Source of the DNA: an uncultured Candidatus Saccharibacteria bacterium
GTDB lineage: Bacteria > Patescibacteriota > Minisyncoccia > Phycocordibacterales > DATDWN01
NCBI GenBank assembly: GCA_964391455.1
Contig: CAYMJQ010000003.1
Location: forward strand, 12,435 to 76,434
Length of the DNA: 64,000 nucleotides
Reading direction: 5' to 3'
The notes under the pieces are model-generated. The model had not been told where the DNA came from. It saw only the letters and a program-made list of their open reading frames with translations, and ran no database searches. This document shows positions 9,068-61,927 of the stretch, piece after piece (position 1 is the stretch's first letter; each line of letters opens with the position of its first letter). The position numbers were made by a program, and so were the translations under genes.

Positions 9068-9283
9068 TCACAGTCCGACGGAAACCCCGACAAACTGATC
9101 GAGAAACTCCGACGGAGAAAGAAGTGAATCGTGAGGCTCAATTGAACCACCATAACCATTGAGGAGAAAATACCTCTTGTTCTGGTGTTCCCAAGAAACC
9201 CCAACTTTTTCCAAAAACTCTTGGGCCAAATCCAGTGAGGTAAATGGCCCGATGTTTCGATTGCAGTATACAATTTTGTACAT
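9068..9283 (-). CDS. hypothetical 71-aa protein, GC-richer than flanks, with its own SD and terminator
   Basis: GGGGAGG lies 4 nt before the ATG. The product is MYKIVYCNRNIGPF...VGVSVGL. A hairpin aatcaggtaac/gttacctgatt (9032-9066) follows the stop codon. Confidence 0.5.
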   Translation of the reverse strand: MYKIVYCNRNIGPFTSLDLAQEFLEKVGVSWEHQNKRYFLLNGYGGSIEPHDSLLSPSEFLDQFVGVSVGL

Positions 9284-9326
9284 ACAACCTCCCCTTCATT
9301 AAGAATACTACAAAAATATTCTGTGT

Positions 9327-10340
9327 CTATCTTTTAGAAATTACAGACTTTTTATAATCATCCAAATGTTCTAGAGCAATACCTGTTCCCTTCACAACAC
9401 AATATAAAGCATCTTTAGCTAGAACAGCTTTAACTCCAGTCCTTCTAAAAACCAGTTCTGGAAAATTCCTAAGCTGTGATGTACCTCCAGTCATTATTAT
9501 CCCTTGATCAATAATGTCCGATGAAAGCTCTGGTGGAGTTTCTTGCAAAACATCTTTTATCGCCTTTATCATTTCTCTCAAATCCTTACTTATTGCTTTT
9601 ACTATTTCATTTGTTTTTATTTCTACACTTCTCGGAAGGCCAGTAATAAAATCTCTTCCTTTTATTGTAACAGTCAATTCTTCATCTAATGGAATAGCTG
9701 ACCCAACTTTAACTTTTATATCTTCTGCAGTTTTATCACCAATACCAAGATTAAATGTCTTTTTTATATAATCGGTTATTGCTTGATCAATTCTATTGCC
9801 TGCACATTTAACCGATGTTGAAGCCACTATACCTCCAAGAGAGATGACGGCAACGTCTGTCGTCCCCCCACCTATATCTACAATCATATGCCCTTTGGCT
9901 TCATGAATAGGGATACCGGCACCAATAGCTGCCAAGATAGGTTCTTTAATAACATAAGCACTTTTTGCTCCAGCTCTAATAGCCGCTTCAATAACCGCAC
10001 GTCTTTCAGTAGAAGTAACTCCAGCTGGAACAGAAACCAAAACGTCTGGTTTAAAAAATTGCCATTTACCAAGAGCTTTATCTATGTAATATCTAAGCAT
10101 GGCTTCAGTTACCCTATAATCAGCTATAACACCATCTTTCATTGGTCTATAAGCGATAATATTGTCAGGAGTTCTGCCTATCATCTCTTTAGCTTCTATA
10201 CCTATAGCAACGATTCTGTTATCCTCCTCTGAAACAGCAACCACCGAAGGCTCATTTAAAACCACACCACGGCCAGGGACAAAAACCAGAGTATTAGCAG
10301 TACCCAAATCAATACCTATTTTTTTTGAGAAAAATGACAT
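9327..10340 (-). CDS. second actin-like MreB-family protein (MreB paralog, Mbl-like)
   Basis: 337 aa carrying GIDLGTANTLVF, DIGGGTTD and MTGGTS motifs. It is distinct from the mreB at 3256-4338. Confidence 0.85.
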   Translation of the reverse strand: MSFFSKKIGIDLGTANTLVFVPGRGVVLNEPSVVAVSEEDNRIVAIGIEAKEMIGRTPDNIIAYRPMKDGVIADYRVTEAMLRYYIDKALGKWQFFKPDVLVSVPAGVTSTERRAVIEAAIRAGAKSAYVIKEPILAAIGAGIPIHEAKGHMIVDIGGGTTDVAVISLGGIVASTSVKCAGNRIDQAITDYIKKTFNLGIGDKTAEDIKVKVGSAIPLDEELTVTIKGRDFITGLPRSVEIKTNEIVKAISKDLREMIKAIKDVLQETPPELSSDIIDQGIIMTGGTSQLRNFPELVFRRTGVKAVLAKDALYCVVKGTGIALEHLDDYKKSVISKR

Positions 10341-10410
10341 AATTTTGAGTGTACCACAAAAAACAACTGCAAAAATTTGTTTTTATGATATATTCGGTAT
10401 AATAGCCGAT

Positions 10411-11154
10411 ATGAAGGATAATGTAAAAAATAAAAAAATCTATTATCAAGTCGCTTTTGCGATCGGCGCCTTGGTTGTGCTTGTATCAATATTTAGTTAT
10501 GAAATAACTGGAGGGTTAAGCATTGGTAAAACTGGACAGCTAGCTTTAACTATCCCAATTCCAGAAACAAATATTTTTATTGATCAATCAAAAAAAATTG
10601 TAACTGAAAAAGAAAATGAAGTTTTAGAAATATCTCTTAGTCCAAAAGAACACACAATAATAGTTTCTCACGAAGATTTTTATCCTTGGAAAAAGGAAAT
10701 AAGAATTTCTAAAGATGAAAAAATAAATCTATCACCTATTTTTGTGTACAGAAATCCTTCTGGAAACATCATTACAAAAAATGACCCTGAATACTCAAAA
10801 ATACTAAACGACATTATTAGCAACGTGACGCCTCAAAAAAATTCTCCTAAAAAAAGTCTGGATGGATTAGTTTCCGTGTGGGCAGAAGATGACAAAATAA
10901 TGTCAAAAAAAGACGGTGATATAAAAGAGGTTGTTAAATTCCAAACCCCTATTAGAAACTTGGATTTTTACAAAGACAGAAATGATGTGGTTATGTTCTC
11001 ATCTGGAAATGGCGTTTATGTTATAGAACTAAACAAAGAAGGAACTCAGAATTTTATGCCTATATATAAAGGTGAAAATCCTTCTTTCTTTACGGCCGAT
11101 AAAAACTACATTTTTATACAAGATTTTCAAAACTTAATGCAAGTTATTATATAA
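10411..11154 (+). CDS. hypothetical membrane-anchored protein
   Basis: Starts at the ATG at 10411 (MKDNVKNKK...), has one N-terminal TM segment and no recognisable motif. The longer 330-aa track ORF is antisense to mreB2. Confidence 0.45.
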   Translation: MKDNVKNKKIYYQVAFAIGALVVLVSIFSYEITGGLSIGKTGQLALTIPIPETNIFIDQSKKIVTEKENEVLEISLSPKEHTIIVSHEDFYPWKKEIRISKDEKINLSPIFVYRNPSGNIITKNDPEYSKILNDIISNVTPQKNSPKKSLDGLVSVWAEDDKIMSKKDGDIKEVVKFQTPIRNLDFYKDRNDVVMFSSGNGVYVIELNKEGTQNFMPIYKGENPSFFTADKNYIFIQDFQNLMQVII

Positions 11155-11160
11155 GCATAT

Positions 11161-13083
11161 TTGGAGTATAATACCTCACAAATGCAGATAATAACTATAA
11201 TACCTATAAGTAAAGGAATCCCTAAAGATGTTTTAACCTATTTCACAAAAGATGAGATTGATTTGGGTAGTCTAGTCAAAATACCTTTAAGAAAAAAAAC
11301 CGCCTATGGTTTAGTTATAGATGCAGTAAAAGCCGAAGAAGTTAAATCCCAAATAAAATCTCTGCCCTATTCAATGAAAAAAATTGAGGAAATCAAATCT
11401 AGATATTTTTTGCCAGAATATTTTATAGAATCTGCAAAAAGAATATCAGATTATAATGCTGGAAGTGTAGGTTCTGTATTGTATTCTCTTATACCTAAAA
11501 TAATATTAGAAGAAAGTGATAGTATTAATTTTGAAAAAAAAGAGAGACCAAAAGACACTTTTAATGAAATAGCCTTACTTCAATCAGATAATGAGGAAAG
11601 ATTTGCAACTTATAAAAGTTTGGTGAGAGAAGAATTTGCAAGAAATCATTCAGTATTTTTTTGTATTCCTACTTCAGAAGACTTGGTCAATTCAAAGGCA
11701 ATATTGGAAAAAGGTATAGAAAAATATACTTATGTTTTAAACTCTAATTTATCCAAAAAAGAATTGCTAGAAAACTGGAAAAAAATACTTGAAGAAAATC
11801 ACCCAGTTTTGATAATCGGGACTGGACAGTTTTTATCAATTCCGAGAAATGATATAGGAACAATCATATTGGAAAAAGAATCTTCAAGAGCCTATAAAAC
11901 ACAGACCAGACCTTTTTTAGACATAAGAACAGTTGTAGAAATGCTAGCAAAAGAAATGAAAGCCAGATTGGTTATAGGAGACACCCTTCTTCGTGTTGAG
12001 ACACTTTGGGGTGAAAAAAAAGGTAAATATGCTCAATTGTCTCCTTTAAAATTTAGATCACTTTCTCCGGCTAATTGCGAAATAGTGGACATGAAAATCC
12101 CACAAGAAATGAAAAGTAAAGAATTTAAAATAATCGGAGATAAACTAAAAGAACTGATATCAAATACAATATCAAACAATGAAAATTTGTTTTTATTTTG
12201 TGCTAGAAAAGGCTTATCACCCATAACAATATGTAGTGATTGTGGAACCGTAGTCTCGTGTAAAAATTGCAAAATGCCTGTAGTCCTTTATGGAAAAAAG
12301 GAAGAGGCTGGTGGAGCAAAAAATATTTTTGTTTGTAATCATTGTAGAGAAAAATTTGATACCAGAATAACTTGTACTCACTGCGGAGGATGGAGACTAA
12401 ACCCTATGGGTATAGGCACAGAAAAAGTGAAAGAAGAAATAGAAAAAATTTTCCCCAAAGCAAATATTTTTATTTTTGATAAAGACCATGTAAACACACA
12501 AAAGAAAGCTGAAAAAATACGTAACAATTTTTACGGATCACCTGGATCCATATGTATAGGTACAGAAATGGCTATACCTTATTTGAATCAAAAAATAGAA
12601 AATACAGCTGTAGTAACTTTAGATTCATACTTTTCCATACCAGATTTTCAGATTAATGAAAAAGTATTTCACATCCTACTTGAAATGAGATATATAAGTT
12701 TGAAAGAATTTATCATTCAAACCAGACAAGAAAACACAAAAATATTTGAGTATGCCACAAAAGGCAACTTGATAGATTTTTACAGAGATGAGATAGAAGA
12801 AAGAAAAACGCTTGGTTATCCCCCATTTAATAAATATATAAAAATTACATTAGAAGGAGAAAAAAATACTATCCGAAAAGAAATGGAGAAGATAAAAACA
12901 TTTTTTGAACCTTATAAAGTTCAAATTTTTGATGCTTTCGGTAAAAGCATAAAAAATAAACACACTGTTCATGGATTGTTATATTTGGAAGCAGAACAAT
13001 GGCCAGAAAAAAATATTCTGTCTAAAATAAGACAACTTCCTCCACAAGCTATCGTAAAAATAGACCCAGCAAGCCTTTTGTGA
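11161..13083 (+). CDS. priA: primosomal protein N' (replication restart helicase PriA)
   Basis: 640 aa with N-terminal 3'-DNA-binding, helicase and Cys-rich zinc-binding regions (CSDCGTVVSCKNCKMPV...CNHCREKF...CTHCGG). Confidence 0.8.
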   Translation: MEYNTSQMQIITIIPISKGIPKDVLTYFTKDEIDLGSLVKIPLRKKTAYGLVIDAVKAEEVKSQIKSLPYSMKKIEEIKSRYFLPEYFIESAKRISDYNAGSVGSVLYSLIPKIILEESDSINFEKKERPKDTFNEIALLQSDNEERFATYKSLVREEFARNHSVFFCIPTSEDLVNSKAILEKGIEKYTYVLNSNLSKKELLENWKKILEENHPVLIIGTGQFLSIPRNDIGTIILEKESSRAYKTQTRPFLDIRTVVEMLAKEMKARLVIGDTLLRVETLWGEKKGKYAQLSPLKFRSLSPANCEIVDMKIPQEMKSKEFKIIGDKLKELISNTISNNENLFLFCARKGLSPITICSDCGTVVSCKNCKMPVVLYGKKEEAGGAKNIFVCNHCREKFDTRITCTHCGGWRLNPMGIGTEKVKEEIEKIFPKANIFIFDKDHVNTQKKAEKIRNNFYGSPGSICIGTEMAIPYLNQKIENTAVVTLDSYFSIPDFQINEKVFHILLEMRYISLKEFIIQTRQENTKIFEYATKGNLIDFYRDEIEERKTLGYPPFNKYIKITLEGEKNTIRKEMEKIKTFFEPYKVQIFDAFGKSIKNKHTVHGLLYLEAEQWPEKNILSKIRQLPPQAIVKIDPASLL

Positions 13084-13100
13084 TATTTTAATGAAATAAT

Positions 13101-15035: not shown

Positions 15036-15112
15036 ACCTTAATTATATAACTAAAAAATACTTTTTGAAAAGACCCCAAAATAGGGTTTATAAACAAAAA
15101 GTACTATACAAA

Positions 15113-15616
15113 TTAATCTAGAATGGATACCTCTTTTATGTTGGATTTTAGAATTTTTGAAGAATATTCAGCATCAGATGGTCTATCAAACAAAAAATCT
15201 CCCTCAAACAACTTTCCACTCAAAAGAAATGGAAACCAATATTCATCATCAGGCCACATTTGTGTAAAAGGTACTACACTCATTAAAAACCATTTCGGTT
15301 TCATTTCTTCAGTCTCAACTGGCTCCCGTAAAAAATCTAATAATTTAAAAACATGAACTTCTAGAACTTTATCATCATTTTCAAAAGAAAATTCTAAAAT
15401 ACCTACCTTATTTAATTGACCGTCATTTATCCCCACTTCTTCTTTCAACTCCCTAAGTGCAGCTTGTTCTATAGTTTCTCCTTCTTCCACCTTGCCCCCA
15501 AAACCATTCCATCTACCCGAGCCGAATCCCCTCTTTTTCATACCAAGCAGAATTTTATCACCTTTAATTGGAAAACATAAAGTCAATATTTTTTTCATAA
15601 AAAAATTGTAACACAA
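15113..15616 (-). CDS. NUDIX hydrolase
   Basis: Carries a NUDIX box GGKVEEGETIEQAALRELKEEVG. The true start may be the internal MKKILTL. Confidence 0.8.
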   Translation of the reverse strand: MCYNFFMKKILTLCFPIKGDKILLGMKKRGFGSGRWNGFGGKVEEGETIEQAALRELKEEVGINDGQLNKVGILEFSFENDDKVLEVHVFKLLDFLREPVETEEMKPKWFLMSVVPFTQMWPDDEYWFPFLLSGKLFEGDFLFDRPSDAEYSSKILKSNIKEVSILD

Positions 15617-15664
15617 ATAATTTAATCCAAGGGTAATATTGGGTTGTAATATATATACAGAAAC

Positions 15665-15700
15665 CGCCCGAAAGCTCGACGGCTCTGCGGGCGGCTTTTA
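15665..15700 (-). terminator. GC-rich hairpin terminator at left edge of tRNA-Asn island
   Basis: ccgcccg / cgggcgg form a 7-bp stem with a 16-nt loop, immediately after the stop of the 15714-16109 ORF. Confidence 0.5.
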
Positions 15701-15713
15701 CTGGTTACCTCTT

Positions 15714-16109
15714 TCAGTCCATTTCCAAATAGTCTGGTAGTGACCTACTATAGATTTCATAAGTAAGTTTAGTACCATCGCCATTGAGGACAATAAAGCA
15801 GACCCAATCGTAGTCCATCTTGCCTATTTCTTCAGCGAGATCACTGAGTCCACCATTACCCCAGAATTCAGGAACTCTAGTGCTTTCCTTCGTCTCTTCA
15901 GTCCACAAACAGAGACGTCTGTCTGTGTTTGTTGCAGTGTCAATGATATATCCCCCATTGAATTCAGTTGCGATAAGACGTCTCGCAAAAGAATGTTCAA
16001 GTTTTGGCTCAAATACAACAATAGCTTTTGCTTTTTGCGAAGAACTTGTTACTCCTGGGTCATCTACAAGTTTTTCTATGTTTACTGAACCAGTTTCAAT
16101 CCAGTACAT
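15714..16109 (-). CDS. hypothetical 131-aa protein (island gene F); weak resemblance to SUKH/Smi1-type immunity-like proteins
   Basis: Starts MYWIETGS... with GGAAGGAG 5 nt upstream. A TTGACA-17-TAATTT promoter lies at 16131-16159. The gene is GC-rich and carries EFWGNGG and LPDYLEM motifs. Confidence 0.5.
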   Translation of the reverse strand: MYWIETGSVNIEKLVDDPGVTSSSQKAKAIVVFEPKLEHSFARRLIATEFNGGYIIDTATNTDRRLCLWTEETKESTRVPEFWGNGGLSDLAEEIGKMDYDWVCFIVLNGDGTKLTYEIYSRSLPDYLEMD

Positions 16110-16130
16110 TTTAACTCCTTCCTGATGCAA

Positions 16131-16159
16131 AAATTAACATTAGAATTAATGTGTGTCAA
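16131..16159 (-). promoter_or_regulatory. promoter of island gene F (TTGACA-17-TAATTT), paralogous to the gene E promoter
   Basis: The minus-strand read is ATTGACACACATTAATTCTAATGTTAATTTTTG. It aligns with ATTGACACGCATTTATTTGTGTGTTAATTTTG upstream of gene E. Confidence 0.5.
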
Positions 16160-16172
16160 TTCACAACGCTCA

Positions 16173-16199
16173 TTGGACAAGTTCAGAACTCTGAATTGG
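16173..16199. repeat. 27-bp palindromic element copy 2 (ttggacaagttcagaactctgaattgg)
   Basis: Inverted-repeat arms TTCAGA/TCTGAA flanked by CCAA/TTGG, lying 13 nt upstream of the gene F -35. A near-identical copy is at 16751-16777. Confidence 0.6.
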
Positions 16200-16249
16200 A
16201 GAAAAACTGAGATAGAGTTTGAAATGATAATGTTTGGTTTTGTGTATAA

Positions 16250-16276
16250 CGAAAGCCGCTCTACAAGAGAGCGGCC
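16250..16276 (-). terminator. terminator after island gene E
   Basis: Minus-strand GGCCGCTCTCTTGTAGAGCGGC + TTTCGTT. Confidence 0.5.
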
Positions 16277-16539
16277 AAGATGTGGGCCTTTTTGTCATCA
16301 AATTCATTGAGTGGAACAATTGAGATTGTGTTCAGCCCAATACGAAGTTCAGAGAAGTCAGTAACCTGTTGTCCGATTTTGTGTATCGGAATTCCAGCTG
16401 TTACGAGTTTCTGTACAACGGCCTGTTGAGCTTCTTTTCTGTTCTCTGATTCGACCAATCCAAGCGAGTATGAGCCTCGTCCTGGGTTTTCAATGCTCAC
16501 AATGAAATGCATTTTTACCTCCAAAAACAAAATTAACAC
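16261..16539 (-). CDS. hypothetical 92-aa protein (island gene E)
   Basis: GGAGG lies 7 nt before the ATG. A TTGACA promoter at 16530-16558 sits 5 nt from att repeat A1. The gene is GC-rich. Confidence 0.5.
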   Translation of the reverse strand: MLILFLEVKMHFIVSIENPGRGSYSLGLVESENRKEAQQAVVQKLVTAGIPIHKIGQQVTDFSELRIGLNTISIVPLNEFDDKKAHILAALL

Positions 16540-16563
16540 ACAAATAAATGCGTGTCAATAAAG

Positions 16564-16579
16564 TGCTCCGGCGGTAGGG
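16564..16579. repeat. direct repeat A1: partial copy of tRNA-Asn 3' end (tgctccggcggtaggg)
   Basis: A 16/16 match to plus-strand 17492-17507 (the tRNA acceptor/T-arm 3' portion). Confidence 0.7.
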
Positions 16580-16712
16580 TGATCTTTTTTAATTTTAAAT
16601 TTTCGTCAAAATTTAAAATTAAAAACGCAGTTTGTCGACAAGCCGTACTCGGCTCGTAAACCGACAAACTGTTCGATCCCTACACGAAAACTTTCAGTTT
16701 TCTCGCCGATAG

Positions 16713-16740
16713 TAAAAAAGACCCTTACGGGTCTTTCTTT
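16713..16740. terminator. bidirectional hairpin terminator (aaaaaagaccc ttac gggtctttcttt)
   Basis: Stem agaccc/gggtct with an A-run on the 5' side and a T-run on the 3' side. Confidence 0.5.
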
Positions 16741-16750
16741 GCTCCGCAAG

Positions 16751-16777
16751 TTGGACGCATTCAGAACTCTGAATTGG
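16751..16777. repeat. 27-bp palindromic element copy 1 (ttggacgcattcagaactctgaattgg)
   Basis: Differs from copy 2 only at 3 central-left positions. Confidence 0.6.
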
Positions 16778-16914
16778 GTTGCTATTAAAAGAGAATTAGA
16801 ACTTTCGGGGATTTTAGGTATATCTTATTTTCAAACTGCTTCAGAACTAGTGTAAAAACAGAATCGCCCAACGAGGTCGGGCGACCTGTTGAGCGATGAT
16901 AGAGAAACGGGAAG

Positions 16915-17265
16915 TTACTTCTTTGCACGGGACGTTCTGGAACGAAAGGACAGTTCTTCCTTGCTGAACTGGATGTGATGGGTGTTTTCAATGATAGTCC
17001 TGCGTTTCGCACCCTTGTCGACATTCCACTGTCGCAATCCTTTGCGACGCCCAACACGAAGCCCTTTGGTTTTCTCGTCGCAATATTTCATCACACACTT
17101 CGCGACGTGTTTTGGAAGTGTGTGCAAACAACTTCCATCACAAGGACCGATGACAATGTGCTCATCTGCCATTCGGTTTACGTAGTTGTAGTGGGAAACG
17201 TGGATTTCACCATTGATACAGAACTGGTCTCCCCATTCTTCACGACTAATCAGAGTTGCTTTCAC
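16915..17265 (-). CDS. hypothetical 116-aa Cys/His-rich protein (island gene G), a possible zinc-finger or HNH-like nuclease fold
   Basis: GTG start with GGGAGG 5 nt upstream. A TTGACT-17-TATTAT promoter at 17294-17322 lies 2 nt from att repeat A2. The protein carries C16, HVSHYN, GPCDGSCLH, KHVAKC, KYC and NTHHI clusters and a basic C-terminal tail. Confidence 0.5.
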   Translation of the reverse strand: MKATLISREEWGDQFCINGEIHVSHYNYVNRMADEHIVIGPCDGSCLHTLPKHVAKCVMKYCDEKTKGLRVGRRKGLRQWNVDKGAKRRTIIENTHHIQFSKEELSFRSRTSRAKK

Positions 17266-17293
17266 TAAACACCTCCCTTCAAATCTAAATTAG

Positions 17294-17322
17294 ATAATAA
17301 CACGACTTATAAAATAAGTCAA
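17294..17322 (-). promoter_or_regulatory. promoter of island gene G (TTGACT-17-TATTAT)
   Basis: The minus-strand read is TTGACTtattttataagtcgtgtTATTAT. Confidence 0.5.
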
Positions 17323-17324
17323 AC

Positions 17325-17347
17325 TTGCTCCGGCGGTAGGGATCGAA
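17325..17347. repeat. direct repeat A2: 23-nt copy of tRNA-Asn 3' end (ttgctccggcggtagggatcgaa)
   Basis: A 23/23 match to 17491-17513. Confidence 0.75.
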
Positions 17348-17493
17348 ACTTACAGTTTCAGTACACCTGTTCTGTTTTTTATTTCTAATTGAATAAAAAA
17401 CTATCACAGGTCTTCGATCCCTAACGTAAAAGTCTCCCAGACTTTTACTCCGTCCTTCGCAAATGAAAAATCCCCTTTCGGGGTTTTCATTTG

Positions 17494-17565
17494 CTCCGGC
17501 GGTAGGGATCGAACCTACGACCAATCGATTAACAGTCGATTGCTCTACCACTGAGCTACACCGGA
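17494..17565 (-). tRNA. tRNA-Asn (anticodon GTT)
   Basis: The minus-strand read is TCCGGTGTAGCTCAGTGGTAGAGCAATCGACTGTTAATCGATTGGTCGTAGGTTCGATCCCTACCGCCGGAG. It has a 7-bp acceptor stem, a D-arm AGCTCAGTGGTAGAGC, an anticodon loop CUGUUAA and a T-arm GTAGGTTCGATCCCTAC. CCA is not encoded. Confidence 0.85.
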
Positions 17566-17745
17566 ATGTTTAAGCTCAGGACCACTGGCCACAAGTTAAA
17601 ATCTGCTGATTTTACTCGCGACCCCTCCTCGCCCCCGTCTCGGGCTCCGGCCTTGCGAAGTAAAAACATCACTTCTCACTACACCGGAATAAATAGATAA
17701 TACCAAAAATATAGAGGAAAGCAACAATTTTATACTTACTCTGTA

Positions 17746-20657: not shown

Positions 20658-21341
20658 ATGCCACAAAAAACTGAGCTTCACCCAGAAGAAGTAGCAAAGT
20701 TGTTTGGTGTACACAAAAGAACCATTTTCAGATGGATAAAAAGGAAACATCTGAAAAATGTAAATGGAAAAGTTCAGATGGATGGTTTGCAAGAAAAACT
20801 ATCTCTCTGGAAAAACAGTGTGCCCAGACACGAAGCCAGAAAAAGACTGAGAGTTAGGGTATGGACCTTGAACACTTGGATCTCTCATGGCTATCTTGAA
20901 ACCGTCTCTGTGATGGGAGAAACAAGGGTGATAACAACTTCTCTGGTGAATGCTCCCCAGAAAAGAATAGGGCTGTCTCTGGACTTGAGACGATTTGTAA
21001 ATTTCAACCAATTGATTGTAATGTTGGACACTTCTTCTCCAACATTAAATAAATATGCAAACATTGAGTTTAAAGTTCAAACCTCAGGAAAACACAAAGT
21101 TGTTACAGAAGAAGAGGCTCACCGTTTAATTGAGCTAAAAAGGAGTTCCTTTTCAACAAAAGAAACCTGCCAGATTCTGGATGTAAACAAAAAACAACTC
21201 AAACAAATGGTAAAAAGTAAGGAACTGGAATTGTTAGTACTTCTTGGAAGAGTAAGGGTAACCAAAAAATCAGTCAGATCTATGGTTACAAAAATTGCCA
21301 GTAGAAAAAAACTGCAAGAGATTGGTCTTGCAAAGACTTGA
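20658..21341 (+). CDS. DNA-binding protein with three tandem excisionase/MerR-like HTH (HTH_17-type) repeats
   Basis: The three repeats are EVAKLFGVHKRTIFRWIKRKHL, VWTLNTWISHGYLETV and ETCQILDVNKKQLKQMVKSKELE. AAGGGG lies before the ATG, and a terminator follows at 21351-21381. Confidence 0.55.
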   Translation: MPQKTELHPEEVAKLFGVHKRTIFRWIKRKHLKNVNGKVQMDGLQEKLSLWKNSVPRHEARKRLRVRVWTLNTWISHGYLETVSVMGETRVITTSLVNAPQKRIGLSLDLRRFVNFNQLIVMLDTSSPTLNKYANIEFKVQTSGKHKVVTEEEAHRLIELKRSSFSTKETCQILDVNKKQLKQMVKSKELELLVLLGRVRVTKKSVRSMVTKIASRKKLQEIGLAKT

Positions 21342-25960: not shown

Positions 25961-25978
25961 TTTTATAAAAAAAACAAA

Positions 25979-26012
25979 GTCTCGAGTTGTCACAACAACT
26001 CGAGACTTTTTG
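25979..26012. terminator. bidirectional terminator (gtctcgagttg / caactcgagac + ttttt)
   Basis: An 11-bp stem. Confidence 0.65.
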
Positions 26013-26023
26013 GATCTTGGGAA

Positions 26024-26329
26024 CTACCTTCTCTCAGCGAGAGAAAGTGGATTGGCAATCCTTTCTCCAGGAAGGATCGTCTCAGGGTGAATCTTTTCGA
26101 CAAGCTCCAGCATAACGCCGACGGTAGCAGTGCCGAGCTCTGGCTCACAGGAAAGAGCGAGGTCTTTCAGAACTTGCTTTTCCAGACGACCAGCATGACC
26201 AGTCGTGACCTCGATGATGTCTTGTTTCGACATTCCAGTTCTTTCTCCGAGAAGAGTCTTGGAACCGACTCTCACTGCCGCTCGGTGAACAAGAACACCG
26301 AACTCTGCAGAAGCAAACCTATTTGTCAT
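26024..26329 (-). CDS. hypothetical GC-rich 101-aa protein with probable HTH (sigma-70 region-4-like) segment
   Basis: Starts MTNRFASAEF... with GGGAGG 4 nt upstream. The HTH-like segment is LGERTGMSKQDIIEVTTGHAGRLEKQ. It lies directly after the atpC terminator and is GC-richer than its neighbours. Confidence 0.5.
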   Translation of the reverse strand: MTNRFASAEFGVLVHRAAVRVGSKTLLGERTGMSKQDIIEVTTGHAGRLEKQVLKDLALSCEPELGTATVGVMLELVEKIHPETILPGERIANPLSLAERR

Positions 26330-35106: not shown

Positions 35107-35688
35107 CTAAAACAAAGACTGGGTTTTTACTTCCACCTGTGGCTCCCAATGTTTTGTATCTAATTTAATCTCCTTTGTAAAAGGTCCTTCTTTAAAAATT
35201 AGTTTTTTATTCTTCATTGCAAACTCATAAACATCCTTAGTGATTTTCACATCATCTATACAATACTTTCTTATTTTATCTATCTCTCCGCTCCGCCACC
35301 AAGCCACCGCCTCTAGCCCATTACCACTTTTGTTTATTCCAAAAGTTCCTTGTGCTATCTGATCCAATTTCATTCTTCTTCCGTAAGAATTCTTTACTTC
35401 TTTTAAGATATCTAATGAAGCTATTTGAGTTAAGTCACCTTGACCTGCTTTTTTATAATATTTATTCAAAAGTGGTATATCAAAATGTTCACCATTAAAA
35501 GTTATGAGCTGTTCTGCTTTTTTAAAAAAGGGCCACATTTTATCAAACTCTTCCTCTATAAAAGTCTCATACTTGTTTGTATCGTAGTCATACAAGCCCA
35601 CAAGAGAGATATCTAAATCTACCGGATCGTTTGAGCCAACATCCTGAAAAATATTTTTAGTCTCAATATCAAACACAATTTTTCTCAT
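35107..35688 (-). CDS. DEDD-family 3'-5' exonuclease (DnaQ/RNase-T-like)
   Basis: Carries VFDIETKNIF (Exo I) and YCIDDVKITKDVY (Exo III) motifs. The start is taken at MRKIVFDIE; the track's longer N-terminus is uncertain. Confidence 0.6.
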   Translation of the reverse strand: MRKIVFDIETKNIFQDVGSNDPVDLDISLVGLYDYDTNKYETFIEEEFDKMWPFFKKAEQLITFNGEHFDIPLLNKYYKKAGQGDLTQIASLDILKEVKNSYGRRMKLDQIAQGTFGINKSGNGLEAVAWWRSGEIDKIRKYCIDDVKITKDVYEFAMKNKKLIFKEGPFTKEIKLDTKHWEPQVEVKTQSLF

Positions 35689-35739
35689 AAGATTTAGTAT
35701 ACCAGCACAATAAAACTTAACAAAATTAAGCACAAAAAA

Positions 35740-35858
35740 ACTGGTGGGGAGGTTTGCAGTCCCTCCCTAACCAGTCTTGACGAGCCCCTGTGTACTCGTC
35801 GGCCGGCGGGTCTGCCGCCATTAAAGGGTCACGGTGTAGGTGTGACTCATAAAAGTCA
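35740..35858. other. GC-rich structured non-coding element with four hairpins and mutually exclusive gtcac/gtgac/gtcac pairings
   Basis: The hairpins are actggt...accagt (35740-35775), gacgag...ctcgtc (35779-35800), ggcgg...ccgcc (35805-35819) and gtcac...gtgac (35828-35846), with an alternative gtgac...gtcac pairing (35842-35858). The element sits in the divergent region between the exonuclease and the DsbA-like gene. Confidence 0.35.
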
Positions 35859-35993
35859 CCTTCCTTTCCCAAATCGTAAACCTAGGAAATCTAGGCTACT
35901 TCTCAATTATAACATATGTAAAAATAATAATCAACTAATACAAGGTCTGCTTGAAAATTGCATCTAAATCGATTCCCTAGTAGAATAGGCGTT

Positions 35994-39645: not shown

Positions 39646-39690
39646 TTTGGATAATAAAAAATCCCGGTTCTCGACTGTTGCCGAAAACCG
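39646..39690 (-). terminator. terminator of GC-rich gene (tcccggtt / aaccggga + T-run)
   Basis: An 8-bp stem; the minus-strand read is followed by TTTTTTATTAT. Confidence 0.6.
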
Positions 39691-39726
39691 GGACCTGTGC
39701 TGGGAAGCAAATACAAGAAGATCAAA

Positions 39727-40383
39727 TCAGATCGCTGAGGCGAATTCCTCCGCAGCCGCTCTCACCTCGTCGGCGATCCGCGTATCTTTCTCAGCCTGTT
39801 CGCGACGCCTCTCTTCTGGCGTCTTTTCAACGAGAAGCTCGACTCTCGCCTTCTGCTTCTTGGAAGCCTTGCCGAGCCTGGCAAGCATGCGGGCATTGGC
39901 ATCCCGCGCCTCCTGAAGTCTGGGAGCTTCCTCGATAGAATCGAGAAGATCCCAGTAGAGACGGCTGAGTTCGTTGAGATCGAACTCGTCGAGCAGCCGA
40001 GTGCTCTCAACCGCCTCCTTGAAGAGATTGAATTTCTTCATGAGGCCGTCATAGATGTCCTGGTCCACGAGCTGGGCCACCATGCGGAGCTTGTTCGGGA
40101 AAAAGTTCTCCACCGAGCGAATGGCGTAGAACTTTTGACTGTTCCGGAGTGAACGAAGTGCCTTCACTGCGCCATTGAAGGCAAACAGGAAGGACATCAC
40201 CCCGAACGCCCGGACTGAATCGAGGTAAAGTATCTTGATCTCATCCTTTACCTTGAAATTCATGAATCGGGCTCGAGTCTTGCCACTGTCACCAGTGGCA
40301 ATCTTTACCTCTGCTAGGAAGGCACGGAAAACACCCTCCACCTCCTGCCGAGTCGGGATCTTCTTCACCTTCTTCTTGTCCAT
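39727..40383 (-). CDS. hypothetical 218-aa protein encoded by a strongly GC-rich gene with its own consensus promoter and terminator
   Basis: Starts MDKKKVKKIPTRQ... with GGGAGG 5 nt upstream. The C-terminal half is an E/R/A-rich coiled coil. Codon usage is unlike its neighbours. Confidence 0.55.
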   Translation of the reverse strand: MDKKKVKKIPTRQEVEGVFRAFLAEVKIATGDSGKTRARFMNFKVKDEIKILYLDSVRAFGVMSFLFAFNGAVKALRSLRNSQKFYAIRSVENFFPNKLRMVAQLVDQDIYDGLMKKFNLFKEAVESTRLLDEFDLNELSRLYWDLLDSIEEAPRLQEARDANARMLARLGKASKKQKARVELLVEKTPEERRREQAEKDTRIADEVRAAAEEFASAI

Positions 40384-40427
40384 TGTCGCCTCCCAGCAAT
40401 ACGCCACGAAATGTGACTAAATTGCTC

Positions 40428-40463
40428 TGTTTTGATACTAGCATATTTATCACTATTTGTCAA
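40428..40463 (-). promoter_or_regulatory. sigma70-consensus promoter TTGACA-17-TAGTAT for the GC-rich gene
   Basis: The minus-strand read is TTGACAaatagtgataaatatgcTAGTAT. The spacer 3' end plus the -10 (ATATGCTAGTAT) nearly matches the 54174 promoter (ATATGCTACTAT). Confidence 0.55.
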
Positions 40464-40547
40464 ATAATTTTTTACTTTTTATATAAAAACCCTTATTTTA
40501 AGCCAAAAAATACATGGTGTCGGAACCGATGCACTAGTTTAGTTAAA

Positions 40548-40590: not shown

Positions 40591-40721
40591 TAATTCCAAA
40601 CTTTCATAATTTGGTGAAATCCGACGTTGAGAGTTTTAAAATGTAAGGAGCCTTACCAGAAGTAAAGTGACAAGGATTTTGAAACTCGAGAACGAGGAGT
40701 TCGCCGAATTTGGAAGTTTAC

Positions 40722-54040: not shown

Positions 54041-54100
54041 ATTTTTTGTAAATTTAATTTATTAATTACTAAACCCTGGTTTACTTATAAATATATATTA

Positions 54101-54116
54101 GTGAACTATGGTTCAC
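54101..54116. promoter_or_regulatory. LexA operator of Cheo-box type (GTGAACTATGGTTCAC; GAAC-N4-GTTC)
   Basis: A perfect 6-4-6 palindrome matching the low-GC Gram-positive SOS-box consensus CGAACRNRYGTTCG, upstream of the lexA operon. Confidence 0.6.
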
Positions 54117-54173
54117 CAGTCAATAAAGACAAAACTAAAACTGTGGAAAACTAATTTTTAATATTTTAAAAAC

Positions 54174-54202
54174 TTGACATTTAACTTGATATATGCTACT
54201 AT
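54174..54202 (+). promoter_or_regulatory. sigma70-consensus promoter TTGACA-17-TACTAT of GC-rich cassette
   Basis: TTGACAtttaacttgatatatgcTACTAT. AGGAGG lies 7 nt before the ATG at 54223. Confidence 0.5.
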
Positions 54203-54222
54203 TAAGGATAGGAGGATAACAC

Positions 54223-54441
54223 ATGCCGAGTCCGAACTCGACCCGCTCCCGGCTTTGCAACCGGGAGAAAACCCGCGGTTTCCAGACCGCGGGCCACCAC
54301 ACGGTGAATATGTTTGGCGCGACGCCGACCATGTTCACGGACCAGCCGTGGCGGGACCCTCGGGTCCCCCGGCTGAAGAGCTTCAGCTCGGACAGGAGCT
54401 ACCTGCTCCCGTCCGAGTACAAGATCGAGGTGAGCCACTAG
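54223..54441 (+). CDS. 72-codon ORF in extremely GC-rich cassette; a protein-coding versus structured-RNA role is unresolved
   Basis: The product MPSPNSTRSRLCNREKTRGF...YKIEVSH has a strong SD. The region also carries six perfect hairpins, including a 14-bp stem that holds the stop codon in its loop. Confidence 0.35.
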   Translation: MPSPNSTRSRLCNREKTRGFQTAGHHTVNMFGATPTMFTDQPWRDPRVPRLKSFSSDRSYLLPSEYKIEVSH

Positions 54442-54459
54442 GCTCACCTCGATCACGCA

Positions 54460-54498
54460 GGCCGACCCACTTCAGAGAGCGGGTCGGCCTTTTCATTT
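54460..54498 (+). terminator. intrinsic terminator (ggccgaccc ... gggtcggcc + tttt)
   Basis: A 9-bp GC stem with a 12-nt loop and a T-run. It is preceded by a second perfect hairpin at 54423-54454. Confidence 0.65.
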
Positions 54499-54499
54499 G

Positions 54500-55159: not shown

Positions 55160-55189
55160 AGAATCCGTGAAGGTAACACCTTCACGGAT

Positions 55190-56679: not shown

Positions 56680-56744
56680 GAAAACAAATGGTAAAAAACA
56701 CATACATCTCACACCTCCTTTCTATAAATATTATAGAAAAAATA
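56680..56744. repeat. 65-bp direct repeat copy 2 (duplicated promoter/RBS/start fragment giving a 12-codon mini-ORF MYVFFTICFQYF)
   Basis: Identical to 55747-55811 and located about 125 nt upstream of the 55936-56556 gene start. Confidence 0.8.
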
Positions 56745-56799
56745 AGAGAAAACCGCTATCTGGGAAAAATCTCAAATAGCGGGGGTTGTCTTTCTTTAC

Positions 56800-57282
56800 T
56801 TAAAGATGTTGGTCTACTTTCTCGACAAAGCGATGCTTTAAGTAAAGTATTCTAGCTGTGGCTGGACGAGTTCCCAGTGCAATGGGAATCGAAAGATCCT
56901 TGTCTTTCGCCCAAACAGAAAGGAAGAAATCTGCGTGATGGACTTGAGTAGAAACAATTACCACGTCGTTTCTTATCCCAACTCTATCAACTAGACTCAC
57001 TGCCTCTTGAGCGTACGAGGAATTGTCCAGACAAGAAGCCCTGTGCCCGAAACAGTTGTGCTGGCTAAACCTGGAAACACCCAGACAAGAAGCTAGAATC
57101 AAACTAGTCTCTTCTGCTCTTATGGAAGGAGAAGAGAGAATGGCGATACGAGAACCTTTTAGCTTTAGCATAAGAATTCTCGCCAAAGCAAAAACGTTAC
57201 TCCTACCTCTATCTGTCAAACTCCCATTGCTACGGTTGTATTCTCCATTGCAAACAACGATTAATTTTTCCAACATGTACAC
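56800..57282 (-). CDS. histidine-phosphatase-superfamily-like protein (SixA-like) lacking the canonical RHG catalytic motif
   Basis: Carries VVCNGE in place of RHGE. A TTGACA-17-TAATCT promoter and GGGAGG RBS are present. The gene is GC-richer than its flanks. Confidence 0.45.
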   Translation of the reverse strand: MYMLEKLIVVCNGEYNRSNGSLTDRGRSNVFALARILMLKLKGSRIAILSSPSIRAEETSLILASCLGVSRFSQHNCFGHRASCLDNSSYAQEAVSLVDRVGIRNDVVIVSTQVHHADFFLSVWAKDKDLSIPIALGTRPATARILYLKHRFVEKVDQHL

Positions 57283-57332
57283 CTCCCAAGAAAAAGATTA
57301 GGTTTTTAAAAAAACTTTGTCAAATTTATATT

Positions 57333-57365
57333 GAAAAAGGTCGGGGGCAAATCCCCGACCTTTTT
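57333..57365 (-). terminator. terminator (ggtcgggg gcaaat ccccgacc + T-run)
   Basis: An 8-bp GC stem. Confidence 0.6.
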
Positions 57366-57372
57366 GAAGAAC

Positions 57373-57876
57373 CTAGATTTTCAAAACATACCACTGAACA
57401 GAAAGTTCCCTACGAAGCCTACTCTGTCTCTCTGCCCAAATCGGAAATCCAAGAGACATTCTGCTAAAGAACTCAGATCTCTTACTTGAACTAGTATTAC
57501 GAGAAAGAGTTCTAAAAAATCTAGCTCCCTCTCCATGATACCAATTCAAATTGTGACGCCCTCTCATCTGGTCAGCGAAAAACCCAGACAGCAGGAGAAT
57601 TTGACAAGCAACTGCTTCACAAACCTCAGGGTCAGAAACAATGTCTCCAACCTGAGAATTCGGCAAAATATGGTTGTCAAACACCTGAGACAAATTCCTT
57701 GGACACGGAATAGTCTCAGTTGAGTCACAGGAAACTTGAGCAAAGTGTGCCAGAACACTTGCGTTATACAAGAGTTCATCTTCTCTTACTTCACCTTGAG
57801 AAACATCTTTCAGTCCCCCAAAGAAAAACTGTAGAGCTTGCCTGTGGTTTACAGAGAGAGGTTCTGCAAAAGACAT
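57373..57876 (-). CDS. hypothetical protein, GC-richer than flanks
   Basis: Starts MSFAEPLSVNH... with GGAGGG upstream. No motif recognised. Confidence 0.4.
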   Translation of the reverse strand: MSFAEPLSVNHRQALQFFFGGLKDVSQGEVREDELLYNASVLAHFAQVSCDSTETIPCPRNLSQVFDNHILPNSQVGDIVSDPEVCEAVACQILLLSGFFADQMRGRHNLNWYHGEGARFFRTLSRNTSSSKRSEFFSRMSLGFPIWAERQSRLRRELSVQWYVLKI

Positions 57877-57896
57877 ACACCCTCCTACGATAGATA

Positions 57897-58859: not shown

Positions 58860-58965
58860 TTATAAACAATTTTAACATGAATAATAAAAGAAAATGTAAT
58901 CAAGACTATTTAAACATTAAAAAAGAAAAGCACACCTAGAAAGGATGTGCTCCTCTTGGTGCGCC

Positions 58966-59253
58966 CTAGCTGGCAAAGACACTTGTCTCATTTTTGCCAG
59001 TGTTTAGATAGTTTTCATATTCTTGCCAAAACTTTTTCAAAGCAGTTTTAGCATTTTTTATTGCTTCATTATACCTTTCATTTTTATACATTTCCATAGC
59101 AACTACAGAAAAAGCCTTAACACTGGTGGAAGGTGTAAAACCCTTCATGCCACCACCAACTTCAAAAGCTTTTTCTAGGCTAAGAATTTGAATTCTGGCT
59201 CTGGTTTTTAAACTCAGCCTTGACATAGAAGAACCCCCAAAAATAAAATACAT
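58966..59253 (-). CDS. hypothetical small protein
   Basis: 95 aa. The start is uncertain (possibly MSRLSL). Confidence 0.3.
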   Translation of the reverse strand: MYFIFGGSSMSRLSLKTRARIQILSLEKAFEVGGGMKGFTPSTSVKAFSVVAMEMYKNERYNEAIKNAKTALKKFWQEYENYLNTGKNETSVFAS

Positions 59254-59286
59254 TTAAAATAATGTTATGTCAATTACAAATTGACG

Positions 59287-60972: not shown

Positions 60973-61031
60973 AACATTGTATCAGTATGTATCAAAAAAC
61001 TATCAATTGACATACTGTGATTTTTGATATT

Positions 61032-61688
61032 CTATTTATTTTTTAACTTCCATTTTTCAATTTCTGTATGATTTCCAGAAAGCAAAACTTTTGGGACTCT
61101 ATATTTTTTACCTTTGTATTCAAAAAATTCGGGTCTGGTATAAACCTCATGACTAGAGACTCTATTTTCTTCAAGAGAGTTAAAATTCCCTAAAACACCT
61201 TGTATTTGTCTGGAAACACAGTCTATATATATCATCGCTGGTAATTCACCTCCAGTTAAAATAAAAGGCCCAATAGAAACTTCTTCCATTTTAAAGACTT
61301 TTTTAACCCTAGCGTCTACACCTTCATATCTACCGCAAACCAAAATAATATCTTTTATTTGATTTTTATTTTTTTTTGTAATCTTTTTTGCATATTCATT
61401 TGTAAATTCTTTACCTCCAGGAGTAAAAAATACAATTTTGTATTTTTTTTTACCTATTTTTTTTAAAGATTTCTCGATTGCCTTGATAACAGGCAATGCT
61501 TGTATAACCATACCAGGTCCACCACTATATGGTTTCTGATCAACTCGTTTCCATTTATCATCCGAATAATCCCTAGGGTTATAAAAATAGACTTTTATTT
61601 TCTTATCCTCTATTGCCCTAGAAATAATAGACTCATTTAGATATGAATCAAAAGCACTCGGAAACAAAGTTATGATATGAAAATTCAT
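61032..61688 (-). CDS. trmD: tRNA (guanine37-N1)-methyltransferase
   Basis: A SPOUT-fold TrmD sequence. Confidence 0.9.
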   Translation of the reverse strand: MNFHIITLFPSAFDSYLNESIISRAIEDKKIKVYFYNPRDYSDDKWKRVDQKPYSGGPGMVIQALPVIKAIEKSLKKIGKKKYKIVFFTPGGKEFTNEYAKKITKKNKNQIKDIILVCGRYEGVDARVKKVFKMEEVSIGPFILTGGELPAMIYIDCVSRQIQGVLGNFNSLEENRVSSHEVYTRPEFFEYKGKKYRVPKVLLSGNHTEIEKWKLKNK

Positions 61689-61753
61689 ATTTTATTTATA
61701 ACACAAAAAATATACACAGTAAAGGGCGTAAGATTATTACGCCCTTACACAGT

Positions 61754-61927
61754 CTATGCCACCCTATTCTTCGGTGGAATTTCCTCCCTCTTGATATTTT
61801 TTACCACCTGAGAAGCCAGGTGCCAATTTGATATTGGCTCCTGACACATATTGCATTTGTTGTCTCCCTTGAAGGCCTGCCAAGCTCCGCAGTGTGGCTT
61901 ATCACAGCATATCCAACGTTCAGACAT
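61754..61927 (-). CDS. 57-aa Cys-rich zinc-ribbon-like small protein (not in supplied ORF track; below its length cutoff)
   Basis: Own translation: MSERWICCDKPHCGAWQAFKGDNKCNMCQEPISNWHLASQVVKNIKREEIPPKNRVA. GGAGGG lies 8 nt before the ATG. The gene sits between the KH-protein terminator and trmD and is GC-richer than its flanks. Confidence 0.5.
   Translation of the reverse strand: MSERWICCDKPHCGAWQAFKGDNKCNMCQEPISNWHLASQVVKNIKREEIPPKNRVA

Follow-up and report, generated by a model that had tools for sequence, protein, structure and literature searches.

The DNA analyzed here is a window of 64,000 nucleotides (positions 12,435 to 76,434 of contig CAYMJQ010000003.1 in GenBank assembly GCA_964391455.1), an AT-rich stretch of bacterial core genes dotted with small GC-rich patches. 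A Pfam scan placed in its backbone the genes for MreB (two copies), MreC, PBP2, RseP, Frr, HolB, PriA, Fmt, TypA, the F1Fo ATPase, HisRS, DsbA, a UvrD/PcrA-type helicase, sigma-70, DnaG, RpoB/C, SecE-NusG, ribosomal proteins, Pif1, and TrmD. The GC-rich patches fall into three classes: small stand-alone protein genes, structured non-coding RNAs, and one insertion linked to a tRNA-Asn gene. An earlier reading of the sequence alone had listed ten such segments and interpreted them as small foreign cassettes on a streamlined chromosome, with structured RNAs as a fallback. We find that one half of this interpretation stands, in that the units are small, variable, and self-contained and some of them are structured RNAs, but that the other half, the capture of foreign DNA by an active mechanism, does not.

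The computed GC profile and the GC content at third codon positions (GC3) both confirm that the listed modules rise above the AT-rich backbone. The window has a GC content of 33.4%, and its 200-nt windows have a standard deviation (SD) of 0.06 and a 99th percentile of 0.53. When each segment is compared with all windows of the same length in the 64 kb, all ten lie above the 93rd percentile. Four are extreme, with z scores of 3.3 to 5.4: 54223–54441 (GC 0.644, z 5.4), 39727–40383 (0.545, 5.1), 35740–35858 (0.58, 3.6), and 26024–26329 (0.507, 3.3). The other six are moderate, at z 1.6 to 3.1: 15650–17570 (0.418, 3.1), 56800–57876 (0.42, 2.4), 61754–61927 (0.466, 2.1), 5790–6300 (0.427, 2.1), 9068–9283 (0.444, 1.9), and 4381–4500 (0.442, 1.6). 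Mean GC3 is 0.24 for the 45 open reading frames (ORFs) of at least 150 residues, with both GC-rich ones counted in, and single backbone genes have values of about 0.20. Against this backbone, the six most deviant small-unit ORFs have a GC3 of 0.46–0.90 (0.90 at 54223, 0.69 at 39727, 0.53 at 61754, 0.51 at 16915, 0.47 at 9068, and 0.46 at 26024), and the other four have 0.33–0.44 (0.44 at 16261 and 0.33–0.39 at 15714, 56800, and 57373).

In five of the units (9068, 26024, 39727, 54223, and 61754), inspection of the sequence reveals expression signals: a sigma-70-like promoter, an AGGAGG-type ribosome-binding site, or both, and downstream a G+C-rich hairpin with a T-run. The strong ribosome-binding sites and terminators that had been described for the modules are thus present. 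Comparison across the window modules found no sequence common to different modules or their boundaries, and the sole boundary repeats are copies of the tRNA-Asn 3′ end at 17325–17350 and 16563–16588, in keeping with the earlier remark that obvious repeats are confined to the tRNA case.

We compared the window with related loci collected by two queries, RpoC, which returned 50 loci in species-representative genomes, and MreB, which returned 80 further loci from metagenomes. The related loci, 133 in all and given L numbers below, cover about two thirds of the window. The best RpoC matches (83–93% identity) are labeled Parcubacteria, Zambryskibacteria, Paceibacterota, or Minisyncoccia; by this homology, the source organism is an AT-rich Parcubacteria/Zambryskibacteria-like bacterium of the candidate phyla radiation. 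Gene order is kept in the relatives across both the RpoC and the MreB blocks. The picture of a streamlined, syntenic core dotted with small self-contained units is supported.

The units themselves come and go. In the 133 related loci the equivalent junctions are empty or patchily occupied, and the length of the mreB2-holB, holB-frr, rseP-aaRS (aminoacyl-tRNA synthetase), sig70-uvrD (sigma-70 gene to uvrD), dsbA-exo, and KH-trmD junctions varies between a few bp and several kb. Among relatives, the gap runs from 404 bp to 6 kb at sig70-uvrD, from 65 bp to 2.2 kb at dsbA-exo, from about 0 (many <50 bp) to 2.9 kb at mreB2-holB, from 23 bp to 1.3 kb at holB-frr, and from 36 bp to 2.2 kb at rseP-aaRS. 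GC excess grows with gap length (Spearman 0.60), and short gaps are AT-rich. GC-rich islands occur at equivalent places in relatives beside secE, 3′ of sigma-70, and between dsbA and exo. L056, the closest relative by MreB, has a GC-rich unit with a 137-residue ORF in its holB-frr gap, which in the window is 23 bp long. Across 48 AT-rich relatives, 22% of non-core ORFs but only 1% of core genes exceed core GC3 by more than 0.2; the excess is restricted to ORFs of <400 residues, and no non-core ORF of >400 residues shows it. The recurrence at the same junctions, together with this contrast in GC3, indicates that the pattern belongs to the lineage and not to a single contig.

Small protein genes at core-gene junctions

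The unit at 39655–40470 (minus strand) consists of an AT-rich 5′ untranslated region (UTR; 40384–40470), an ORF of 218 residues (P0004; 39727–40383), and a terminator at about 39655–39700. A word-indexed homolog search returned P0004 alone. A full HMMER scan of 1.84 billion representatives recovered a family of 33 cluster representatives of about 205–240 residues, with full-length matches at 21–40% identity. We examined the DNA context of nine of the 33. All nine genes are GC-rich (GC3 0.58–0.86), and all nine lie in AT-rich Parcubacteria DNA with a neighbor GC3 of 0.24–0.40; none of the nine was found in a GC-rich donor lineage. Six sit 3′ of sigma-70 and/or 5′ of uvrD, as in the window, and the remaining three occupy the RNaseHII|NUDIX junction, the smpB|infC junction, and a site 3′ of a zinc-finger gene. 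On these contexts, the P0004 family appears to be confined to AT-rich Parcubacteria, mostly at the sig70-uvrD junction.

The P0004 gene diverges much faster than its surroundings. The 5′ UTR is conserved, with 77% DNA identity between window positions 40389–40470 and L002 and its motif also present in L052, and the protein is at 40% identity where RpoC is at 93% and the 5′ UTR at 77%. An AlphaFold2 model of P0004 predicts an all-helical bundle (predicted local distance difference test, pLDDT, 87; predicted template modeling score, pTM, 0.78) plus a disordered charged linker. Neither a PDB profile search nor a Foldseek comparison of this model with the PDB gave a significant match.

A second single-gene unit, at 54174–54497 on the plus strand, is divergent from secE and comprises an ORF of 72 residues (c54223; 54223–54441) and a terminator at 54461–54497. 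Its signals are a TTGACA-17-TACTAT promoter and an AGGAGGA ribosome-binding site, and GC at its three codon positions is 0.51, 0.52, and 0.90. At the same place beside secE, relatives have a conserved divergent promoter (TTGACA, N17, extended −10 box) that precedes a small GC-rich ORF with a terminator. In L003, L005, L024, L026, and L030 this ORF is a homolog of c54223 that shares the motifs MPxLNSxR, PW[RK]DPxVPRL, and EYKxExS[HQ] and differs synonymously in its codons; in L002, L025, and L028, unrelated GC-rich small ORFs lie downstream of the conserved secE-side promoter. The amino-acid motifs and synonymous differences indicate that the ORF is coding. Its RNA is also strongly folded: the window allele is a chain of near-perfect hairpins, with a fold z of −11.2 against dinucleotide shuffles and −3.8 against synonymous shuffles. 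Upstream of secE, an inverted repeat (GTGAAC-N4-GTTCAC, 54099–54118) is kept, with adjacent sequence, in all close relatives; lying between the divergent promoters, it may be an operator or promoter element.

The unit between mreB2 and holB (9068–9283, minus strand) encodes 71 residues (c9068), with a GGGGAGG ribosome-binding site and a terminator at about 9020–9060. Its mRNA structure has a z of −3.0 against synonymous shuffles. At the equivalent site, L057 has a divergent ORF that has a GPF motif in common with c9068, and the ORF is absent from L056, L058, and L060. The site in L056 retains an AT-rich remnant with a terminator-loop motif, GAGAGTGG, and this remnant in the closest relative points to loss of the unit there and not to insertion in the window. 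Mechanical ORF calling had here produced a 312-residue ORF with a TTG start (8335–9273) that fuses holB to the upstream 9068 unit; the true holB start, by holB homology and alignment with relatives, is the ATG at 9006.

At the end of the atp operon, 26024–26329 (minus strand) encodes 101 residues (P0003); its ribosome-binding site is GGGAGG, and its own terminator follows at about 25975–26000. GC is 0.51 overall, 0.63 at first codon positions, and 0.46 at third positions. The word-indexed search found no homolog of P0003 but itself, and Pfam, PHROGs, PADLOC, and NCBIfam gave no family match. Synteny with relatives breaks at the end of the atp operon; in L139, a GC-rich ORF (GC3 0.69) other than P0003 directly follows atpC.

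Two moderately GC-rich genes lie at 56800–57876 (minus strand). The first, 56800–57282 (160 residues, GC3 0.39), gave a weak SixA/histidine-phosphatase signal in a family library search, and the second, 57373–57876 (P0005; 167 residues, GC3 0.35), has homologs at 34–45% identity near PGA_cap in L013, L015, L024, L039, and L045. Between the KH-domain gene and trmD, 61754–61927 (minus strand) encodes a Cys-rich, zinc-ribbon-like protein of 57 residues (c61754); a TATAAT box and an AGGAGGG ribosome-binding site precede the gene, and a hairpin terminator closes it. The window has 328 bp between the KH-domain gene and trmD, versus 69–121 bp in L047, L034, and L051, and c61754 has no family match in PHROGs, PADLOC, or NCBIfam.

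Taken together, the ten small-unit proteins gave nothing convincing in Pfam, NCBIfam, PHROGs, or PADLOC beyond the SixA-like hint for 56800–57282. A test of syntenic sites in the relatives found divergent homologs for the units at 39727, 54223, and 57373, the remnant in L056 for the 9068 site, broken synteny at 26024, and no visible remnant for c61754 and the tRNA-Asn island.

Structured RNAs and the tRNA-Asn island

The segment at 4374–4505 (minus strand), which we call R1, is a conserved structured repeat outside Rfam. It folds as RNA or single-stranded DNA into three helices closed by a long, AT-rich basal stem, CTCATAATTTTTTATCGC / GCGATAAAAATTATGAG, with a 17-bp terminal inverted repeat in the window copy. 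R1 aligns with sequences at other junctions in eight relatives. A covariance model scored the window copy, the single copy in the 64 kb, at 107.6 bits and found 24 matches at E <= 0.01 across the 133 sources, on both strands, including four within 24 kb in L007 and two in L022. Across 16 copies, paired cells make up 91.7%, versus 66% in shuffles, and compensatory changes occur in 26 of the 32 pairs. The covariation score, 0.714, compares with 0.213 in shuffles, 0 of 500 shuffles reaching the observed values, and with at most 0.19 for slid partners.

R1 resembles dispersed intergenic repeats and miniature inverted-repeat transposable elements (MITEs), a group that includes Correia, RUP, ERIC/IRU, and REP/BIME elements and the Rickettsia palindromic elements. 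Its copies are about 135–165 nt long, intergenic, on both strands, and several per genome, and they have a long terminal inverted repeat. Unlike such families, the R1 copies are old and individually conserved, with one copy in the window; no near-identical copies were found, those inside one genome (L007) being about 65–75% alike, and no target-site duplication could be defined, occupied and empty sites being too diverged. Copies that are only 65–75% alike and yet keep their fold by compensatory changes suggest selection on each copy rather than a recent burst of transposition. R1 could possibly be a 3′-end or terminator module, a paralogous small RNA (sRNA), or an old domesticated MITE. We had also considered, on a resemblance in motifs, 6S RNA and signal recognition particle RNA as identities for 4374–4505; both were dropped because the element is multi-copy and has no Rfam match, either in the window copy or in the copies of L005, L022, L046, and L071.

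A second RNA, at 35735–35890 (minus strand), is a predicted stand-alone sRNA with a near-consensus promoter (TTGATT-17-TATAAT) at about 35900–35930, an intrinsic terminator at 35735–35775, and a fold z of −4.3. In L002 its core blocks are nearly identical, versus about 80% for the backbone, and four pairs are compensated in this comparison of two sequences. Because the neighboring exo gene is inverted relative to L002, this RNA is not a leader. The exo gene itself (35107–35704; RNase_H_2 superfamily) is inverted relative to L002, L003, L016, and others, and dsbA, the sRNA, and HisRS keep their orientation.

The third, at 6105–6290 (minus strand), is a candidate stand-alone sRNA with a TATAAAT promoter-like box, a closing stem (GGAAGCGGGAG/CUUCCGCUUCC), an intrinsic terminator at 6114–6135, and a fold z of −5.4; judged by eye, the rseP-aaRS junction of L056 and L061 holds a unit that resembles an sRNA and is closed by a similar stem. 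Next to it, 5783–6104 (minus strand) is a moderately GC-rich 5′ leader of the class II aaRS gene (4520–5782), to which nothing similar was found in the relatives or in Rfam. A T-box identity for this leader was dropped for want of an Rfam match.

Rfam was searched with 4227 families, at gathering and permissive thresholds, over the window, 4300–6400, and four relatives; the sole hits were the window's tRNA and, in L071, a group I intron. The fallback suggestion that part of the GC-rich segments are structured RNAs is therefore upheld for R1, with its covarying pairs, for 35735–35890, conserved in L002, and probably for 6105–6290, on its fold z. The stronger possibility that all segments are known conserved structured RNAs is not, since the non-coding units have no Rfam match and over half of the patches are protein-coding. 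Long GC-rich intergenic regions mark structured non-coding RNAs in AT-rich bacterial genomes, according to two screens (Stav et al. 2019, PMC6429828; Narunsky et al. 2024, PMC11109978). As in those screens, R1, 35735–35890, and 6105–6290 are GC-rich, strongly folding, and conserved, and R1 covaries; unlike there, the units here lie outside all 4227 Rfam families and more than half of the patches are coding.

The third class is a single island at 15617–17492 (minus strand), with three small ORFs (15714–16109, 16261–16512, and 16915–17265), each with a ribosome-binding site and a terminator. It adjoins the tRNA-Asn (GTT) gene at 17493–17565 (minus strand; ARAGORN and Rfam, 72.8 bits), the apparent integration target. 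The 3′ end of the tRNA (24 nt) is repeated, with 17491–17516 and 17325–17350 being 96% identical, 23 nt of them an exact match (E = 2e-7); at 16563–16588 there is a third copy, which is degenerate (65%), and inverted T-arm fragments also occur in the island. In L056 this site is empty, with the core gene g14664 at about 60 bp from tRNA-Asn, and this spacing implies that window positions 15048–17492, a NUDIX gene plus the island (~2.4 kb), are extra DNA. The three ORFs and the NUDIX gene contain no integrase domain in Pfam, and the three ORFs have no match in PHROGs, NCBIfam, or PADLOC.

Judged from its tRNA 3′-end repeats and the empty site in a close relative, the island is the one clear case of site-specific integration in the window, and on this point the sequence-only reading, which had seen tRNA-site integration in one case, was right. 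Like tRNA-gene-targeted integrative elements, it is extra DNA adjoining a tRNA 3′ end, with direct repeats at growing distance, and is absent from a close relative. Unlike them, it has no integrase, and its segments are tiny (about 140, 740, and 950 bp), with one or two ORFs each. The island is apparently old and accreted in tandem, and it now looks like a decayed tandem accretion.

Two further observations concern the same tRNA. Just 5′ of it, the GC-rich stretch 17566–17745 (GC 0.44) was matched weakly by nhmmer to sequence next to this tRNA in L056, L060, L069, and L106, and could be a promoter, a leader, or another small RNA. In relatives (L071 4349–4615, L056 134–378, and L065 4724–4980), tRNA-Asn is split directly 3′ of the anticodon by ~250 bp, a region that in L071 contains a group I intron (Rfam RF00028, 84.7 bits); the window tRNA-Asn at 17493–17565 is intron-free.

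Probable origin and maintenance of the GC-rich units

The account that we favor, and consider probable, is that of an AT-rich Parcubacteria chromosome with endemic small, self-contained units at its core-gene junctions, in which GC-richness is maintained and is not a mark of recent arrival. On this account, junctions between conserved core genes would hold small self-contained transcription units of three classes. The first would be lineage-restricted, fast-evolving protein genes (57–218 residues), each driven from a native, AT-rich promoter of the sigma-70 type, supplied with a strong ribosome-binding site, and ended by a terminator of its own. The second would be structured non-coding RNAs, among them one member of a covarying family of dispersed repeats, and the third the tRNA-Asn 3′-end integration island, accreted in tandem. 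The units would be native to the lineage, with homologs at the same or neighboring junctions, very fast divergence, and frequent loss, and such divergence and loss would yield a presence/absence pattern that resembles insertion. The data show composition, coding status, family membership, synteny, patchy occupancy, and RNA covariation; what keeps the units GC-rich, and what each of them does, is inferred.

On a rival account, the units would be foreign cassettes that came recently from donors of higher GC content (host bacteria, phages, plasmids, or GC-rich Parcubacteria) and were placed between core genes by site-specific or integron-like capture. Their composition is strongly atypical, amino-acid usage included; presence and absence are patchy among close relatives; one tRNA-targeted island is genuine; different, unrelated GC-rich ORFs stand behind the secE-side promoter, at the sig70-uvrD junction, and downstream of atpC; and some relatives are GC-richer Parcubacteria, with a core GC3 of up to 0.65. 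We nevertheless think this origin unlikely. The 40 window proteins scanned against Pfam include no integrase, transposase, or reverse transcriptase, and no attC-like or shared boundary repeats were found between the window modules, both of which speak against the active acquisition mechanism that had been proposed. A phage tblastn search returned no match, the small-unit proteins had no match in PHROGs or PADLOC, and we found no outside donor for the GC-rich families. Composition shifts exactly at the start codon, behind AT-rich promoters and 5′ UTRs that are conserved between species.

The claim of foreign cassettes also fits poorly with the individual units, given a P0004 family seen in AT-rich Parcubacteria DNA in nine of nine sampled cases and in a GC-rich context in none, a c54223 gene that sits beside secE with a conserved promoter, and a remnant of the 9068 unit in L056. 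For the protein genes, recent import is unlikely because the families are endemic, hold a stable position behind conserved AT-rich promoters, and are GC-rich in every relative, even though their synonymous sites must be saturated.

The units are, like integron gene cassettes, small and single-gene with variable content at a fixed site, as shown by the different ORFs behind one secE-side promoter. They differ from such cassettes in being scattered over 57 kb and not arrayed, in sharing no attC-like imperfect palindromes, in each having its own promoter, ribosome-binding site, and ordinary hairpin plus T-run terminator, and in the lack of an IntI among the 40 window proteins scanned. A parallel in position is offered by the accessory hot spots or hypervariable regions of streamlined bacteria, where fixed core-gene junctions likewise hold variable, lineage-specific, fast-evolving genes; here, unlike there, one in five non-core ORFs greatly exceeds the core in GC content, across species. 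DNA that is accessory or acquired tends to have a lower GC content than the host genome.

If the units are endemic, their GC-richness needs a cause. For the RNA units, base-pairing constraints in an AT-rich genome are sufficient, and screens for GC-rich intergenic regions are built on this effect (PMC6429828, PMC11109978). For the protein genes, the most likely cause would be a force acting on the transcript or on the codons. We measured mRNA structure against synonymous shuffles in 14 small-unit genes, including some from relatives; one row, the L056 holB-frr ORF, was in the wrong frame and was disregarded. Seven of the 14 have z scores of −2.8 to −4.4 (−3 to −4.4 in six genes of the window or L002 and −2.8 in the L024 homolog), versus +0.7 to −1.3 in six core genes.

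Several results weigh against the endemic account or against RNA structure as its driving force. The amino-acid composition of the protein units is also shifted toward GC-rich codons, which would be expected of genes with an evolutionary past in a GC-rich replicon. For P0003, c9068, c61754, and the three island ORFs, no homolog was detected outside the contig, apart from the doubtful L057 match for c9068. The L003 and L005 homologs of c54223 have z scores of about 0 to −1.2 despite a GC3 of 0.86–0.93, and the mRNA-structure excess is weak in c61754, c16915, and P0003. Because the L003 and L005 homologs lack the excess, RNA structure alone cannot explain a GC3 of 0.86–0.93. Other possible causes are GC-biased repair confined to hypervariable coding bodies, a source-sink relationship with an unsampled GC-rich replicon, and selection on codon choice.

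Within the endemic account, we tentatively suggest that AT-rich Parcubacteria might keep a class of small, fast-evolving, stand-alone genes at a GC3 of 0.6–0.9, versus 0.2–0.35 for the genome, through a dedicated process confined to the coding body. Candidate processes are mismatch-driven GC-biased conversion at hypervariable loci and selection for rare GC-ending codons or for hyper-stable transcripts that serve as an expression switch. If there is such a process, composition would mark a functional class rather than a foreign origin.

Another reading takes the protein units for hypervariable loci that diversifying selection keeps polymorphic, where GC-biased repair of heteroduplex mismatches during homologous strain exchange would lift GC, mainly at third positions; the conserved flanks, with few mismatches, would stay AT-rich. 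Such conversion in bacteria was reportedly proposed earlier by Lassalle and colleagues in 2015. It would account for the coupling of GC-richness to extreme divergence (25–40% protein identity where RpoC is at 83–93%), for boundaries that match the variable coding region and not repeats, for GC3 as the codon position most affected, and for the lineage-wide effect. We judge it quite doubtful all the same, as the shift in GC3 from 0.2 to 0.7–0.9 far exceeds the effects ascribed to biased conversion in bacteria, and the extra RNA structure is left unexplained.

We give a slightly smaller chance to the birth of the small ORFs de novo inside GC-rich structured sRNA genes, which would be already strongly transcribed and the sole sites with long stop-free frames in an AT-rich genome. 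The sRNA and ORF units are alike in architecture (promoter, GC-rich body, terminator) at shared junctions, 54223–54441 is a chain of near-perfect hairpins at a z of −11.2, and searches of Pfam, NCBIfam, PHROGs, and PADLOC detected no family for the ORFs. GC content favors de novo ORFs, according to PMC12868653. Such a birth is difficult to reconcile, though, with the strong three-base periodicity of c54223 (GC3 0.90 versus GC1 and GC2 of ~0.5) and its conserved protein motifs, which point to long-standing coding constraint, or with the confident helical bundle (pLDDT 87) and 33 divergent relatives of P0004. Finally, it is hardly credible that the patches are nothing more than normal gene-to-gene variance or assembly and binning chimeras: although six of the ten segments are just 1.6–3.1 SD above the mean and core genes, mreB and rpoC for instance, contain GC-rich patches too, four segments are 3.3–5.4 SD above it, small-unit GC3 values of 0.69–0.90 compare with ~0.20 in the backbone, and the pattern repeats at the same junctions in dozens of independently assembled relatives.

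The endemic account has consequences for how such genomes are read. Atypical composition is routinely taken as evidence of horizontal transfer. The coding units run counter to the general tendency of accessory DNA to have more AT than the core: an ultra-small bacterial lineage would be keeping endemic small genes and RNAs that are far GC-richer than its core, at fixed junctions behind native promoters. If so, predictors of islands and horizontal gene transfer would misclassify such genes in candidate-phyla-radiation genomes. Composition would also become a simple handle for finding the small proteins and RNAs of these organisms, every unit here being without a known family, and it would become a tractable question what force holds GC3 at 0.7–0.9 against strong AT mutational drift. 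R1 and both sRNA candidates would also offer fresh leads to structured RNAs, in a phylum for which we know of almost no characterized regulatory RNAs. The window thus yields several unclassified RNAs and protein families and a lineage-wide compositional dichotomy. A limited check, covering GC-related terms in one paper on horizontal transfer in Patescibacteria (PMC12455944) and abstracts from literature searches, found no description of this pattern, which is no proof of novelty.

Further features of the variable junctions

The sig70-uvrD gap holds further GC-rich families in L012, L015, L017, L028, L029, and L043, at about 17.0–17.9 kb in each locus. One GC-rich family at this junction in relatives is a signal-peptide protein of about 220 residues. 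A zinc-ribbon protein of 65 residues is found there in L029, L046, and L015, a low-molecular-weight phosphatase in L004 and L031, and a SixA-like phosphatase in L044. All-against-all clustering of the GC-rich islands was swamped by conserved core-gene patches, and no signal was gained.

An AT-rich intergenic element of ~125 nt also recurs, at 77–87% identity, in the window (40596–40714), in L002 (13726–13846), and in L056 (15535–15660). It lies 3′ of sigma-70 in the window, L004, L015, and L020, 3′ of rpoC in L002–L005, and beside a penicillin-binding protein gene in L056.

Two observations concern other genes of the window. The sole mobile-element-flavored domain that we noticed is in the 227-residue protein encoded at 20658–21341, which has two HTH_17 (excisionase/MerR-like) domains and a mildly raised GC3 of 0.34. 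The two MreB paralogs, at 3256–4338 and 9327–10340, are full-length, about 46–48% identical, and 5 kb apart, and both are kept in the relatives.

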